Sequence record: PP359570
DNA length: 64,000 bases
From: Escherichia phage ALITA
Reading direction: 5' to 3' (one strand)
Each line of letters starts with the position of its first letter. Positions within the stretch are counted from its first letter, which is position 1. Position numbers and translations under genes: made by a program. The notes under the pieces are model-generated. The model made no database searches, had not been told where the DNA came from, and worked only from the letters and a program-made list of their open reading frames with translations. Below, in pieces: positions 24,288 to 37,093 of the stretch.

Positions 24288-24504
24288 TATTTTGAAAATT
24301 TTTATTTTTATAAAAAGGGGTGTGGGTTTCATGTACGGAAATCCACCCTCTGAATAATATATCCAGAGTAAGTAGTATTCTGTACTCTGTTAATAAAGTA
24401 TTTAATTTGTTTGTTGGATTATGGTGGCTGATCTTTAAAAGGCATACTATCTCTTAACTACTACTTATAACAAAACAGTAAAATCCTTTTTATAAAAGTA
24501 CAAA

Positions 24505-24715
24505 ATTATTTAAAGTTTTTACAGATTTTCGGGTACAAATTTTGAAAATGAAAAGTTCAAGTTTGGTCAAAATTATTTAAAGTTTTTGTACGTATTTCTG
24601 TCCAGATTTTGAAAATGAAAACTTCAATTTTTTAAAAATTCCCCAGTTTATTTAAAGTTTTTTTGCCTTTTTCCGTAGAAAAATCAAAAATGAAAAGTTC
24701 AATTTCGTGTTTTTA
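24505..24715. repeat. three ~70-bp imperfect direct repeats (iteron-like)
   Basis: Each unit contains TATTTAAAGTTTTT ... TTGAAAATGAAAA(G/C)TTCAA; non-coding, AT-rich. Confidence 0.6.
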
Positions 24716-24723
24716 TAGGTGTG

Positions 24724-24840
24724 TTAATGAGAATCATTTTCGTTTGTAAATGAGAATCATTATCATTTAACTATGTAAGTGATAATCATTCTCAGTAAGA
24801 GAATGAGAATCATTAGCAAATGAGAATTTTTCTCATTTAC
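24724..24840. promoter_or_regulatory. cluster of five Fur-box-like palindromic sites (AATGAGAATCATT family)
   Basis: AATGAGAATCATT x3, GTGATAATCATTCTC, and perfect palindrome AAATGAGAA-TTT-TTCTCATTT; core matches part of the GATAATGATAATCATTATC consensus. Confidence 0.45.
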
Positions 24841-25098
24841 AGAATAACGCGCAGGGGCGGTGTTTGTCTCGCGCTCCCGTGTCCCCTCGCCATACAATAA
24901 GAATAGCATAACCAATAACAAAAGCAAGCGATTATTTTTATCTTTACATTTCTTTACAAATTTATTTTAGACGAGCTACCGGCGATCAACCTTCCAACCA
25001 GTGCCCCCTGGTATGTTAGCCCCGCCTTTACGCCGTGGGGTGGCGTTTCCTCTTCTGTATGTAAAACAGTATAAGCCCGATCCCTGGGCTTGTCAAGA

Positions 25099-25365
25099 TT
25101 ATTTTTTGTTTTCTTGCCAGGATAGGACACCTAACCAAAAATACATGTCGCCCCGCGCCCCTGGTGGGATCTTGCTTTCCCCGCCGCCACTGCAAGCCCA
25201 TAAATAACCATCAGCGAACGGATCAAAGTGATCTATCTCTTCCACCTTATGATCGCCCAGGTTGAGAACGGTTTCAACCTTTAAGCCCGTTGCGCTTGCT
25301 ACCTGGTGCACCGTGCCGCCTTGCCAGCCCAGTGAGTGCATGAGATGTAAAGAAGTATTTGTCAT
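25099..25365 (-). CDS. hypothetical protein in GC-rich segment (uncertain)
   Basis: 88-aa ORF with GC-rich, enteric-like codon usage unlike flanking phage DNA; weak RBS; 3' end overlaps a consensus TTGACA-17-TATACT promoter on the same strand. Confidence 0.25.
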   Translation of the reverse strand: MTNTSLHLMHSLGWQGGTVHQVASATGLKVETVLNLGDHKVEEIDHFDPFADGYLWACSGGGESKIPPGARGDMYFWLGVLSWQENKK

Positions 25366-25737
25366 GGTATCGCCCTTTCTTTGTTGTGCGCCCTGGTTGG
25401 CGCGGTAGAAAGATGATAGCCGTTTCCTTCATATATAGCAAGCAAAAAAGAAATGAAAAAAAGATTAAAAAATGGTTGACGTTCCTCACCTGGTAGCGTA
25501 GTATTCATCTTGTCGAGGGGGGCAAGACACAACGACAATAAACAATAGGCGGGTGCAATGCAAGACGGGCAAAGGTGAGGATCTCCACAATCCACCGTCA
25601 CAATAACATTACTTATAAAAGGTTGATAACGATGATCAAGAAAGAAAATAGCTTGACGGTTGGAACGATTAACGCTATCATTCTTGCCGTTCCATTTTGG
25701 ATTGTAGTTGCGGTTATTATTTTCTAAAAAAATATTC

Positions 25738-25793
25738 TTGACAACGTTTTTTAATCTGATAAGATGTATCACATAGGGCGGCAATAGTGCCGC
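25738..25793 (+). promoter_or_regulatory. promoter plus 5' stem-loop cassette (PeSL-like) #1
   Basis: TTGACA, 16-nt spacer, TAAGAT, then CACATAGG-GCGGCA-ATAG-TGCCGC hairpin about 25 nt before the ATG. Confidence 0.6.
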
Positions 25794-25817
25794 TCATAAC
25801 AGAAGAGAGAAATAATC

Positions 25818-26090
25818 ATGGCATCATATAGCGCATCAATGATTGTAAAGGGTATCACTGGTAAACCTATGCGCGGTGGCGGATCTTTCGCTAACATCAA
25901 TATTGATGGACGTTTATCCCTGGACGCAGCGATCACAGTGGCACGGGAAACATTTAAAAAAGAATGTAATTTCAATAAACAAGATTATCTCGGTTTTGCT
26001 ATTGAAAAAACCGCGCGCTTTGTGGATTATAAAAGCCCGAAAATGATCGACACTACACTAAAAGCGCAAGATGTAGCGTTTTTGCTTTAA
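25818..26090 (+). CDS. hypothetical protein
   Basis: 90-aa ORF behind cassette #1. Confidence 0.5.
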   Translation: MASYSASMIVKGITGKPMRGGGSFANINIDGRLSLDAAITVARETFKKECNFNKQDYLGFAIEKTARFVDYKSPKMIDTTLKAQDVAFLL

Positions 26091-26093
26091 GAC

Positions 26094-26154
26094 TTGACAC
26101 TGAAAAATAATTTGATAATATATACCACATAAGGCGGGGAAATGGTTTCCCGCC
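26094..26154 (+). promoter_or_regulatory. PeSL-like cassette #2
   Basis: TTGACA-16-TAATAT then GGCGGGGAAATGGTTTCCCGCC hairpin. Confidence 0.6.
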
Positions 26155-26176
26155 AAATCAAAGAAAGGGTAATGCA

Positions 26177-34881: not shown

Positions 34882-34956
34882 CTTGCTTTATTTCTTCTGT
34901 TAACTTATAGTTATCGCGTAGGGCAAACAATTTTAAACGGTAAACGAGGAATCACC

Positions 34957-35340
34957 ATGAGCAATATCATCAACCTGGCAGCGACTGTAAACGGTAAAGA
35001 CTTTAACGGCGCTGTAGACCGTGATCCTATGTGGTGCTTATCAGTGTTTAAAGGCGATCTGGTTGAAGTTAGAACAACCGAAGGTTATAGCGACGATTAT
35101 AAATGCGAGATTCATTTACACAACTGGTACACGGGTAAAACTTATGCGCTGAATCACGCGTTTATCGGGAAAATTGAATATCGCGAGATGATCGACGAAG
35201 AAACGGGGCAAGATTTTAGCGAGCATGTTTATATTCGTTCAGAAACATTAGCCGAACGTTTGATCGAGAAAATGAAAGCAAAAAATAAAATTAATTTATC
35301 TCATTGGATTGATATAACAAACGATCCGGCTTATAAGTAA
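34957..35340 (+). CDS. hypothetical protein
   Basis: 127-aa ORF; upstream leader looks like a decayed cassette (CGCGTAGGGCAAAC). Confidence 0.5.
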   Translation: MSNIINLAATVNGKDFNGAVDRDPMWCLSVFKGDLVEVRTTEGYSDDYKCEIHLHNWYTGKTYALNHAFIGKIEYREMIDEETGQDFSEHVYIRSETLAERLIEKMKAKNKINLSHWIDITNDPAYK

Positions 35341-35353
35341 ATAACATTTCACA

Positions 35354-35383
35354 CCAGGGCGCACAAAGCGCCCTTTCTTTTTA
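35354..35383 (+). terminator. rho-independent terminator (AGGGCGC-ACAAA-GCGCCCT plus T-run)
   Basis: GC hairpin followed by TTCTTTTT. Confidence 0.6.
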
Positions 35384-35587
35384 CCTAAATAAAGATGATA
35401 GCTTTTACCTATCAAAAACGTTCACCGAAAAAAGTGAATAGATCGCGGTATCGAACTAATCAAGCAACAGATGAACAACCATACCATGAAGGTCATAAGG
35501 CGCTTACAACGTGTTTTAGACCGCTTATTTTTAATTTCTTCATGTAACTATCTGGCAAAAACAGCCTTTTTCTTGTCTTTCCTCTTA

Positions 35588-35657
35588 AATGATAATCATT
35601 CTTATTTATAGCTGATTATTTATGCAATTTATTGCATAATGCAATAATGATAATCAT
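35588..35657. promoter_or_regulatory. two Fur-box-like sites (AATGATAATCATT) flanking an ATGCAAT-TT-ATTGCAT palindrome
   Basis: Exact 13-mer AATGATAATCATT at about 35588-35600 and 35645-35657. Confidence 0.45.
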
Positions 35658-35689
35658 TCCTAACTTAAGACCATCTAACCTATAAAATA

Positions 35690-35960
35690 ATAAGTTATCT
35701 AACTAAATTAAAACTAATTATCTCACTTTTATTTATAACTTACTGTTACTATCTCATTGATAACCTTATATTAAACAACAATAACTAATATAAATCATTA
35801 CTAAGCTAAATATAATCTATCTAACCCTTAAAACTACAATTATAATCTATCTAATTGTTGCACAAAGTAACTATTAAATTGTTAGTAACATTACTAAATA
35901 ATTCACATCCTATCTATTTATGATCTAATCTTTACCTTTCTATCTATTACCTAAATAACC
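35690..35960. repeat. G-depleted tract with reiterated ATCTA / TATCTA motifs
   Basis: About 270 bp with only ~5% G on the plus strand and 10 or more ATCTA-type repeats; non-coding. Confidence 0.5.
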
Positions 35961-36517
35961 ATTTCATACAGTAATTATTCCATATGGTAATCATTTCATA
36001 CAATAATTATAACAAGAAATATAATTCGCAAGCGTATCATTAGCAGCCTATGCCGGACACATAGGCGGCTAATAATAACGCAACTACACACCCCACATAA
36101 TAACCATCAACGATGGTTATTATTTGTGTTTATGTAGCTTGCAACAATTGCAAGCGCAACAATATACATGGTATATTGTATTCCCTTACATTGTTGCGGT
36201 GCGTTATTATTAGCTAATGTTTAGAACATTGGCTATAATATAAGCTGCATATAATAAACTATGCAATAATAAACATGGTGAATAATGACACCGATGATCA
36301 TAATGCGCCACCCTCCAGGGGGCGCTATGTAAACACAAAGAAATCTTTCTTGTCAAGAAAATATTGCCACTATTGCGCAAAATTATTTTTATCTGAATAG
36401 ATGATTTTTCATACTATTGCCCCTATAACATACCTCATTTGTTGAGCCTACTTTCTTAAAAGCGCAATAAATCAGAATTATCTTGATTTTTAGGGCGTTT
36501 TATAGTACAGAAAGTAT

Positions 36518-36536
36518 GCAAATGATAATCATTATC
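36518..36536. promoter_or_regulatory. near-consensus Fur-box-like 19-mer
   Basis: GCAAATGATAATCATTATC matches the consensus GATAATGATAATCATTATC at 17 of 19 positions (16 consecutive). Confidence 0.5.
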
Positions 36537-36702
36537 AGCTATCTTCCACGGGTAGCACTATTTCACGCCAGATCATTTCATTTGGCAAGGTGTATATAGA
36601 TGTTTAGACTTGCCAAGCCATTGATTTACTTAGAATTTATCTGTTTTGTTGTGAGTAATACCTTTCTTACTCAGAAAATAATCAAAAGTCTTATAAGTCA
36701 TT

Positions 36703-36738
36703 GAATGATAATACAAATGATAATTATTCTCATTGATA
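36703..36738. promoter_or_regulatory. tandem degenerate Fur-box-like sites
   Basis: GAATGATAATACAAATGATAATTATTCTCATTGATA. Confidence 0.35.
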
Positions 36739-37093
36739 TTTGAGGGGGACGGTCGGCAGAAATCGGGGGGCGCTGAAAATCGCGTTAAGCACCTCTCGCA
36801 AGCGAGCAGTATTTTGCGGCAAGTTATTGATATTATTGACTTTACGCTTATGAAAAGGGGGTGTGTCGAAATAAATCGGGTATACCGGAAAATTTTTGTG
36901 GCATAGATATTTATTTGTCTATATTATGTACAAAGGGGTGTATTAAAAATAATAGGTATATATAGAATAATTGATAGGGAAATCCTATACTAATCCCTCC
37001 ATTAATGATGTTTCTATGTTGCTGTTATTGTAATAGATGAAAAGACGCTGTATGATGTGTGGCATGAAACGTAAACTTATAAAGGAGTCTGAT

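Follow-up and report, generated by a model that had tools for sequence, protein, structure and literature searches.

The hyperplastic regions of T4-type phages are assembled from PeSL (promoter-early stem-loop) cassettes, which are shuffled in modular fashion (Arbiol et al. 2010, PMC2839356; Comeau et al. 2014, PMC4122927). Each cassette joins an AT-rich stretch to a sigma-70 promoter and a stem-loop, and ends with the Shine-Dalgarno sequence and start codon of the next gene. The stem-loop mostly lies between the -35 and -10 hexamers or over the -10 hexamer; it terminates transcription, and pairs of cassettes release mini-circles (PMC2839356). The temporal gene classes of phages have also been found to differ in synonymous codons, a difference related in part to GC content and the host tRNA pool (Mioduser, Goz and Tuller 2017; PMC5683454). 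Both patterns can be compared with a region of Escherichia phage ALITA (sequence record PP359570) that extends from about 24.3 to 37.0 kb of the 64,000-nucleotide stretch of DNA analyzed here (the window). It consists of an island of small rightward genes (25818-35340) between two flanks (24288-25817 and 35341-37036); the remainder of the genome is called the backbone. In our judgment the region is probably the immediate-early, host-takeover region of a phi92-like myophage, built of cassettes and placed at the right end of the chromosome.

The stretch used as query is 95-97% identical in nucleotide sequence, over 98-99% of its length, to the Justusliebigvirus phages inny, Paula, Nernie and others. 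By this measure its source is a Justusliebigvirus, a phi92-like myophage of the subfamily Stephanstirmvirinae. Annotation transfer matches 25099-35340 gene for gene to gp224-gp248 of phi92, and the genes beyond 37.0 kb to gp1 onward. In the phi92 record, both ends carry an annotated direct terminal repeat of 343 bp (DTR-L and DTR-R), which maps to a single place in the window:

36445-36787, unstranded: counterpart of the phi92 terminal repeat (blastn, 96.8% identity over 343 nucleotides), holding two Fur-like boxes

The single mapping implies that the window stems from an assembly with a collapsed repeat. Because the repeat falls at 36445-36787, these positions are predicted to be the physical genome ends, and the island would occupy the last ~11 kb of the physical chromosome and be transcribed toward its right end.

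The regulatory organization of the island is dominated by one kind of promoter cassette, recognized by aligning the promoters by hand:

25738-34650, plus strand: 18 promoter cassettes
25738, 26094, 26546, 27587, 27664, 28101, 28369, 28787 and 29105, plus strand: starts of the -35 hexamers of the first nine cassettes
29668, 30501, 30966, 31578, 31973, 32341, 32912, 33712 and 34569, plus strand: starts of the -35 hexamers of the last nine

These 8.8 kb (25738-34569) contain 18 of the 24 plus-strand TTGACA-N16-18-TAnnnT sites of the window; in the rest of the genome (~100 kb) there are about 25 such sites on both strands together. A cassette begins with an A/T-rich run and continues with TTGACA, a spacer of 16 or 17 nucleotides, TAnnnT, usually a hairpin, a purine-rich Shine-Dalgarno sequence and the ATG. 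The hairpin, present in 13 of 20 promoter sites scanned, is GC-rich (-13 to -16.5 kcal/mol) and of the type GGGCGG(G)AAA-tgg-TTTCCCGCC or GGGCGGC-aatagt-GCCGC. It begins 9-12 nucleotides past the -10 hexamer, at about +3 to +5 of the predicted transcript. Such hairpin motifs number 15 in the island and 1 in the remaining ~137 kb, and copies can be exact over 53 nucleotides (25765-25817 equals 32369-32421). In the Paula record these hairpins are annotated as minus-strand terminators. A stem-loop at the 5' terminus stabilizes mRNA in E. coli as a general principle, and we infer that the cassette hairpins serve mainly as 5'-terminal stabilizers of short early mRNAs.

A separate family of intrinsic terminators accompanies the cassettes. 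The motif GGGCGC-N5-GCGCCC occurs three times in the island, where 0.01 occurrences are expected by chance, and nowhere else in ~147 kb (the window plus the remainder of phage inny):

30266-30282, plus strand: island-type intrinsic terminator AAAAGGGCGCaataaGCGCCCTTTT
34201-34217, plus strand: island-type intrinsic terminator, followed by TTTTTT
35357-35373, plus strand: terminator that closes the island

Two phages of the sister genus Phapecoctavirus, phAPEC8 and Schickermooser, have three GGGCGC terminators each, equivalent in the positions checked; the motif found at 30266 follows the homologous gene in both. Backbone terminators are of other types, AACCCGC-TTCG-GCGGGTT (at 22272, 47230 and 51602) and GGGGC-TTTC-GCCCC (at 47974 and 59258). 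A first-pass annotation of this DNA had proposed all three families. Its island family and its TTCG family were borne out, as were its GGGGC sites near 47966 and 59252, but the site near 4943 that it had put with the latter reads GGAGGC-TTTC-GCCTCC.

The island is also a compositional unit. Open reading frames (ORFs) were called by a heuristic based on the longest frame and the ribosome-binding site, which gave 26 in the island (25818-35340) and 103 in the backbone. The pooled G+C fraction at third codon positions (GC3) is 0.394 in the former and 0.286 in the latter (Mann-Whitney p=3e-9). The rise persists when the comparison is limited to small backbone genes (p=1e-6) or to the neighboring same-strand small genes at 37-47.6 kb (p=4e-5). 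Since first and second positions (GC1 and GC2) show no rise over backbone ORFs, the difference is synonymous. Island genes favor GCG, GCC, GGC, ATC, CCG, CGC, AGC and ACC and disfavor AGA, CGA, CCT, AGT, TCT, ACA and ATT. The fractions that selected codons make up of their amino acid are as follows:

GCG: 0.197 in the island, 0.058 in the backbone
CCG: 0.358 in the island, 0.089 in the backbone
CGC: 0.308 in the island, 0.090 in the backbone
CTG: 0.174 in the island, 0.121 in the backbone

With the 34 genes of the ent-fep locus as E. coli reference, the displacement of island codons from the backbone is directed toward E. coli usage (r=0.78) and spans 46% of the way there. A per-gene codon likelihood ratio parts island from backbone with p=3e-13.

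Dinucleotide and tetranucleotide signals are far sharper than GC3. The observed/expected ratio of CpG in coding sequence is 1.29 in the island, with every gene at 0.83 or more, and 0.67 in the backbone (per-gene p=8e-14); over all sequence it is 1.21 in the island, 0.65 in the backbone and 1.15 in the E. coli locus. GpC follows the same pattern. Resolved by codon phase, the CpG ratios are:

Island, codon positions 1-2, 2-3 and 3-1: 1.83, 1.05 and 1.14
Backbone, codon positions 1-2, 2-3 and 3-1: 1.10, 0.50 and 0.58
E. coli locus, codon positions 1-2, 2-3 and 3-1: 1.07, 1.23 and 1.14

In a 2-kb sliding profile, the CpG ratio stays at 1.0-1.33 between 24 and 36 kb and at 0.5-0.8 elsewhere, stepping up at ~24 kb and down at 36-38 kb. 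Tetranucleotide-usage deviations of island and backbone correlate at r=0.09, against 0.82 (minimum 0.72) for backbone segments among themselves, a set that includes the remainder of the genome as represented by phage inny. In coding sequence alone the island-backbone correlation is 0.10-0.13, as opposed to 0.92 between backbone halves. Gene size is excluded as the cause of the signature because small backbone genes resemble the backbone (0.935) and not the island (0.065). The 4-mers most depleted in the backbone are the palindromes CCGG, GGCC, CGCG, TCGA, CTAG, CATG, TATA and GCGC, with CCGG, GGCC and CGCG at ~0.3; CGCG, GCGC and CATG are over-represented in the island. The phage carries a C-5 cytosine methyltransferase gene at 50139-51128 on the minus strand. 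Thus the claim of the first-pass annotation that this region stands apart from the backbone in composition and regulation, with island genes richer in GCG, CCG, CGC and CTG, was upheld by GC3 and codon profiles, by tetranucleotide usage and by the region's own promoters and terminators.

The same split is found in related phages. For phAPEC8 the values are:

Island: GC3 0.43, CpG observed/expected 1.20
Flanks of the island: GC3 0.32-0.35, CpG observed/expected 0.70-0.80

In four lineages, the cassette regions have a GC3 of 0.38-0.43 and a CpG ratio of 0.98-1.21 whatever the backbone, and the step in CpG and tetranucleotide usage is present in all three lineages for which a backbone comparison was made. 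The tetranucleotide signature of the island correlates at r=0.72-0.93 with that of the same region in other phage genera and at 0.58 with that of E. coli. The structural region of Vequintavirus shows the same depletion of CpG and palindromes as the backbone here.

Conservation of the layout argues for antiquity. Every Justusliebigvirus examined has the island in this position, and so does Phapecoctavirus. The backbone proteins of phAPEC8 and Schickermooser are 54-61% identical to those of the window. In both of these phages a non-coding stretch follows the gene with the NADAR domain, promoter-led small genes come next and a GGGCGC terminator closes the series; past it, ~1.5 kb without coding sequence separates the series from densely packed genes. 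Since layout and split are shared with a sister genus, the module is ancestral to the subfamily, and comparison of these genomes identifies the island as an ancestral, probably early/host-takeover region and not as a recently acquired insert.

Within this old frame the contents change, and it is the individual cassettes, not the whole module, that move horizontally. Eight island genes are 93-100% identical in amino acid sequence to those of phAPEC8; the others are 35-67% identical or absent. Third-codon-position identity to phAPEC8 is 0.76-0.92 in shared cassettes and 0.53-0.68 in the backbone and in diverged island genes; the high values therefore speak for recent exchange and not for constraint. 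Many close relatives align over the left two-thirds of the island only. Megablast matches of 85-90% nucleotide identity connect the window to Vequintavirus (32948-33320 and 34638-34885), to the jumbo Asteriusvirus (28122-28443) and to phage 4MG (35037-35347), and the units held in common with other phage families start and end within cassettes. Cassettes of the same type precede the small genes proper to Vequintavirus MaxBurger and to the jumbo phage SP27. By nucleotide similarity, then, cassettes are shared with Phapecoctavirus, Vequintavirus and the jumbo Asteriusvirus. Alignments with ten comparison phages gave 38 distinct breakpoints, 25 of them inside cassettes, which make up 17% of the island (binomial p=3e-11). 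Alignments with relatives, which the first-pass annotation had proposed as a check, place indels and replacements inside the region and show gain, loss and replacement of genes by way of cassettes, inside the subfamily as well as with Vequintavirus and jumbo coliphages. Of the alternatives it had offered, a horizontally acquired or an independently evolving module, the latter holds; acquisition applies to cassettes alone, the module as a whole being ancestral.

Atypical composition, sharp boundaries and private regulatory motifs are what one would expect if the whole 24.3-37.0 kb were a foreign genomic island derived from one recent horizontal event. This we regard as very improbable. The same place and layout recur in all Justusliebigvirus examined and in Phapecoctavirus, some of the genes have diverged as far as the backbone (third-position identity 0.53-0.62), and no integrase was found (Pfam), no tRNA in the flanks (ARAGORN) and no direct repeats bordering the island. 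Host-derived DNA was rejected as a source: when 24290-37030 was compared by megablast with 5,426 complete E. coli genomes, no island gene was hit, and a 46-nucleotide piece (see below) was the only match. At the other extreme, one could envision strictly vertical inheritance, with the composition reflecting an early/late codon split tuned to the host tRNA pool and the likeness of the cassettes arising from function instead of exchange. Early/late differences in codon bias occur in about half of the phages studied (PMC5683454). The shift toward E. coli codon usage, the closeness of the CpG and GpC ratios to those of E. coli in all three codon phases and the persistence of the signature in old resident genes would also suit this account. 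We nonetheless think it quite unlikely, because exchange is directly visible and because the same-strand small genes at 37-47.6 kb bear the backbone signature; two further objections to a codon split, from phage tRNAs and from Vequintavirus, are taken up below. A third possibility is that the signature reflects a lag in adjustment, cassettes being imported from a host-like pool and replaced before they drift, with no region-specific selection. High turnover, the similarity of cassette regions in four lineages whatever their backbone, and the correlation of these regions with one another would all follow. This seems unlikely, since a CpG ratio of 1.30 is retained by island genes whose synonymous divergence from phAPEC8 equals that of the backbone, none of the 26 genes falls below the value of 0.83 given above, and no host-like donor was found, the island genes being absent from E. 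coli chromosomes.

We are thus led back to an ancestral, cassette-structured early region with a composition of its own. The split itself was computed here; that a compartment-specific force maintains it, together with gene flux, is suggested by its presence in sister genera and its persistence in genes diverged like the backbone. This force may be selection for translation on unmodified host machinery, which fits the match to E. coli in all codon phases and the retention of the signature in old residents. Alternatively, the cassettes may come from a common mobile gene pool with its own composition, or a purge of CpG and palindromes may act on the backbone and exempt the island. Several observations weigh against the interpretation as an early region of this kind, or temper the evidence for it. 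On the plus strand the cassette hairpins lack a U-tract and hence are not classical terminators, unlike those in the T4-type PeSL experiments. The breakpoint test assumes a uniform null, and island intergenic DNA is nearly all cassette; the enrichment is partly expected because purifying selection acts against breaks within genes. Early timing, transcription starts and the roles of hairpins are all predictions from sequence, and a literature search turned up no transcriptome of a relative. Furthermore, the early region of Vequintavirus exceeds its backbone in CpG (0.98 versus 0.60) but not in GC3 (0.424 versus 0.419), and phage tRNAs were not convincing as the cause of the codon split: among the 15 tRNAs of the close relative inny, eight have U at the wobble position (U34), and only four of these eight fit the codons preferred in the backbone.

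These elements can be combined into a tentative scheme of how the region would work. Each small gene or gene pair would have its own regulatory cassette, and the three GGGCGC terminators would divide the region into three blocks. As every cassette contains a near-consensus sigma-70 promoter, host polymerase alone should suffice, so that unmodified host RNA polymerase would transcribe the region from injected DNA without a phage factor, the 5' hairpins protecting the short mRNAs. Being repeated over 50-100 nucleotides, the cassettes offer portable homology, and recombination within them adds, removes or replaces genes. On the left, the series is bracketed by a divergent promoter region with a small ORF, a non-coding element and an array of Fur-box-like sites; on the right, by further Fur-like boxes, a structured element and the genome terminus.

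The island genes themselves give few hints of function:

25818-35340, plus strand: ~26 small genes encoding 45-184 amino acids, corresponding to phi92 gp226-gp248
28452-28691, plus strand: DUF7249 gene (Pfam)
30122-30259, plus strand: T7 gene 1.1 family (Pfam Phage_1_1, 6.5e-12)
34957-35340, plus strand: T4 gp30.8 family (Pfam Phage_30_8, 8e-29)

Homology to known early proteins is limited to two of ~27 genes, those related to T7 gene 1.1 and T4 gp30.8. Nearly all island genes lack known relatives or function, and Pfam and PHROGs scans of the island proteins gave no function beyond these three family names.

The two gaps that the first-pass annotation had described as long non-coding bounds of the island do exist; the left one, however, is not gene-free, as it holds ORFs of 88 and 31 amino acids. 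Both flanks are functional regions: the genome terminus is in the right one, and the left one is a divergent control region that includes a small ORF together with a non-coding element. The left flank contains:

24487-24705, unstranded: three ~70-bp direct repeats (ATTTAAAGTTTTT...TTTTGAAAATGAAAAGTTCAA), 75-80% A+T, found by repeat search
24845-25062, minus strand: conserved non-coding element, from alignment of 9 and then 24 phage sequences of two subfamilies
~25060-24968 and ~24897-24845, minus strand: RNA1 and RNA2 of this element, in that order, with the motif TGTAAAGA, present twice, between them
25068-25096, minus strand: sigma-70 promoter TTGACA-17-TATACT (11 of 12 positions matched), its spacer a hairpin
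25099-25365, minus strand: 88-amino-acid ORF equivalent to phi92 gp224, GC 50%
25476-25727, plus strand: first rightward promoter TTGACG-17-TAGTAT, leader and 31-amino-acid ORF
25632-25727, plus strand: hydrophobic 31-amino-acid ORF MIKKENSLTVGTINAIILAVPFWIVVAVIIF, the first frame after the first rightward promoter

The non-coding element, probably transcribed leftward, is kept in Stephanstirmvirinae and in the Vequintavirinae genera Seunavirus, Mydovirus, Certrevirus and Henunavirus; another ~15 copies came from a pattern scan of IMG/VR. For RNA1, a structure with one pseudoknotted helix pairs 99% of the alignment cells and includes three covarying pairs, whereas sliding it by 1-3 columns gives at most 54% pairing. 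Given how close these sequences are to one another, the covariation is no more than suggestive of this structure. When folded as a whole (24845-25062, minus strand), the element is no more stable than shuffled sequence (z=0.18), which leaves conservation and the few covarying pairs as the support for RNA1. Neither the element nor the flanks matched Rfam at gathering thresholds, and hits at E-values up to 10 were at chance level. Upstream of the element, a terminator-like hairpin was called at 25091-25073, which puts a terminator within the promoter 25096-25068. The arms of this spacer hairpin vary among phages and yet still pair, while TTGACA and the -10 hexamer are kept.

The gp224-type ORF has 95% amino acid identity to its phAPEC8 counterpart and includes a segment resembling a helix-turn-helix; it falls in PHROG 19316, of unknown function, and has no Pfam match. 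The hydrophobic 31-amino-acid ORF is unannotated in the relatives examined. The ~70-bp repeats, which separate the upstream operon from the left Fur-like array and are annotated as repeat_region in phages inny, alia and muut, are faced by the leftward transcripts and may be a transcription-primed origin or a binding array. An origin of the DnaA type was rejected, as no DnaA boxes were found and the IHF consensus has scattered matches only; an origin primed by leftward transcripts running into the AT-rich repeats is possible. Two genes upstream of the left flank deserve mention. The one at 22329-23735 has repeats with CapR homology and weak, sub-cut-off Pfam hits to T5orf172 and to zinc-finger endonuclease-like families. 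It is 62-83% identical to its equivalents in close relatives, as against 97-100% for its neighbors, which is suggestive of another local hotspot of replacement or of a mobile endonuclease. The gene at 23736-24287 has a NADAR domain.

The right flank holds two Fur-like boxes, short tandem repeats, a three-way hairpin and the terminal-repeat counterpart. Its AT-rich part includes a ATAATCTATCTAA motif repeated at 35808-35854 and, at 35956-36010, three overlapping copies of the 23-nucleotide unit TAATCATTTCATACAATAATTAT spaced 16 bp apart. The hairpin is the best-conserved part of the flank:

36067-36215, unstranded: 149-nucleotide three-way hairpin structure closed by a perfect 15-bp inverted repeat

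Its folding energy is -58.8 kcal/mol (z = -7.0); phAPEC8 and Schickermooser retain the fold, their closing stems showing compensatory changes. The structure is situated ~230 nucleotides upstream of the terminal repeat and may serve as a signal for packaging or replication, or be an RNA. The right border of the terminal repeat coincides with a match to the host:

36762-36807, unstranded: 46 nucleotides across the right border of the terminal repeat, also present in E. coli chromosomes

In the megablast search described above, copies at least 95.7% identical were found in 358 of the 5,426 genomes. The chromosomal copy is situated in an unannotated stretch beside a tRNA-Leu gene (leuX) and a BREX island (in E. 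coli M8, for instance), and this stretch has no other match to any phage record. The match may reflect a packaging-site mimic or a satellite or its relic. As a side observation, ~19 GenBank records of "Campylobacter phage" (MG0656xx) are 94-96% identical over this region to E. coli phages of the phi92 and rV5 types; their host labels are probably wrong, or the records contaminated.

Palindromes resembling the binding site of the iron regulator Fur are found in both flanks:

24723-24841: left array of five Fur-box-like palindromes TGAkAAT-N-ATTmTCA at about 24726, 24749, 24778, 24802 and 24819
35588-35662: two Fur-box-like palindromes, TGATAATCATTCTTA at 35590 and TGATAATCATTCCTA at 35648
36518-36536: Fur-like box TGATAATCATTATCA at 36523, a perfect 7-1-7 consensus TGATAATnATTATCA, in the terminal repeat
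36713-36734: second Fur-like box within the terminal repeat, at 36718

Among these nine matches to the Fur consensus, one is a perfect 7-1-7 site; the 19-mer from 36518 agrees with the Fur-box consensus GATAATGATAATCATTATC at 17 of 19 positions. Chance would be expected to yield 0.6 relaxed Fur-like matches in the window. The core AATGA[GT]AAT[CT]ATT occurs exactly seven times, always in the two flanks, and nowhere else in the ~147-kb genome. As a positive control, the strict motif was run on 44 kb of E. coli DNA, where it hit the known fepB-entC operator alone. Box positions are kept in both genera despite surrounding DNA that is only ~70-78% identical. The last box of the left array, at which the second conserved block of the non-coding element ends, does not vary across Stephanstirmvirinae and at least four genera of Vequintavirinae. 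The boxes lie just beyond the outward-pointing ends of divergent early transcription units. The promoter scan of the window detected no strong sigma-70 promoter overlapping them; in Vequintavirinae, inspection suggests a weak TTGAAT-18-CAGAAT on the plus strand that would span the conserved box.

The small ORF adjacent to the boxes was considered as source of a palindrome-binding protein and rejected. Its slot is filled by either of two unrelated families (the gp224 type or a 60-amino-acid ORF) or is empty, and the boxes stay in every case, which favors a host factor over the product of that ORF. In two more distant, metagenomic relatives of the non-coding element (IMG/VR, L035 and L041) a different palindrome, such as TAGTTACTCACCGTGACTA, takes the place of the box, consistent with the binding site of a host-specific factor. 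The motif matches suggest that Fur may bind the flank palindromes. The boxes may then act in regulation, insulation, Fur titration or terminus function. An iron link is plausible given that the phage has class Ia ribonucleotide reductase genes. Our hypothesis, a tentative one held at somewhat below even confidence, is that phages of Stephanstirmvirinae and Vequintavirinae carry arrays of high-affinity Fur sites that bracket the immediate-early region and recur in the terminal repeat. These would couple the start of infection, the non-coding RNA or the terminus to iron status, or would titrate Fur during replication and so de-repress iron uptake for ribonucleotide reductase, with the early region as a separately maintained compartment of host-like CpG content.

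It is also possible, although we would not expect it, that the palindromes are operators for a phage-encoded protein or sites acting in cis in packaging or replication, their likeness to Fur boxes being a coincidence. The location of two boxes in the terminal repeat, the proximity of others to a strongly structured element and AT-rich repeats, the lack of any clear overlap with good sigma-70 promoters, the nearby gp224 with its helix-turn-helix-like segment and the different palindrome of the two metagenomic relatives are all compatible with such a role. They have to be set against the very close agreement with the Fur consensus, the selectivity of the strict motif in E. coli DNA, the persistence of the boxes whichever small ORF adjoins them and the lack of DnaA boxes. 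The core AATGAGAATCATT presumably also occurs in the aerobactin iucA operator. Compared with E. coli Fur boxes as described by the 19-bp and 7-1-7 consensus sequences, such as the fepB-entC operator, the phage sites match as well or better. They are clustered, as natural Fur sites are (PMC2189734). They differ from known Fur boxes in belonging to a virulent phage, in not clearly lying over promoters and in that two of them are within a terminal repeat. If Fur does bind these arrays, host iron status would be directly linked to the program of a strictly lytic phage; we found no description of such a link in the literature searched, and no report connecting Fur boxes with these phages.

The findings have several implications. 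The cassette shuffling zone of T4-type phages has a counterpart in the phi92/phAPEC8/rV5 group, whose members are widely used in phage therapy collections. The exchange of cassettes and genes between phage families makes this 10-kb zone the place to look for host-takeover and anti-defense genes; it is also a possible site for engineered payloads, with early promoters ready-made. The step in CpG and tetranucleotide usage provides a simple marker, requiring the sequence only, for early regions in large coliphages, and it raises the question of how CpG and 4-bp palindromes come to be purged from the backbone while the island is spared. Lastly, the 46-nucleotide match between the terminal repeat and the leuX-adjacent chromosomal stretch hints at a satellite or a packaging-site mimic.

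How does the region compare with described systems? Its resemblance to the PeSL regions of T4-type phages is close in that small genes of unknown function are flanked by composite repeats and the indels and replacements of relatives fall there. The local minus-strand promoter at 25096-25068 even has its hairpin between -35 and -10, like most PeSLs. In contrast, the hairpin of the 18 rightward cassettes, which lacks a U-tract, follows the -10 hexamer and falls at the predicted 5' end of the transcript; the lineage is that of Stephanstirmvirinae and Vequintavirinae and not Tevenvirinae; and the genes form one large terminal block, not several regions among core genes. A second analogy is with the pre-early (first-step-transfer) region of T5 and the class I region of T7, where genes read by host polymerase from sigma-70 promoters likewise lie at a chromosome end beside the terminal repeat. 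As in T7, small host-takeover proteins are predicted, including a homologue of T7 gene 1.1. Unlike in T5 and T7, the terminal repeat is only 343 bp long, and the genes lie outside it and point toward the end instead of inward; we know of no stepwise DNA transfer in the phi92-like group.

The difference in codon composition between island and backbone resembles the early/late codon split of other phages. It goes beyond it in that CpG and GpC at codon boundaries and the whole tetranucleotide signature are involved, the borders are sharp and cassette regions of different phage families have the signature in common. Published annotations of relatives already record these promoters and the extended non-coding stretch: that of phAPEC8 gives host-dependent promoters and a PHIRE motif, and that of rV5 lists 33 sigma-70 promoters and an unexplained "non-coding" box. 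In the annotations and the rV5 text examined there is no mention of the compositional split, cassette exchange, Fur-like arrays or the non-coding element. As a phage feature the region is of a known kind, but its lineage and form had not been described before in these terms.

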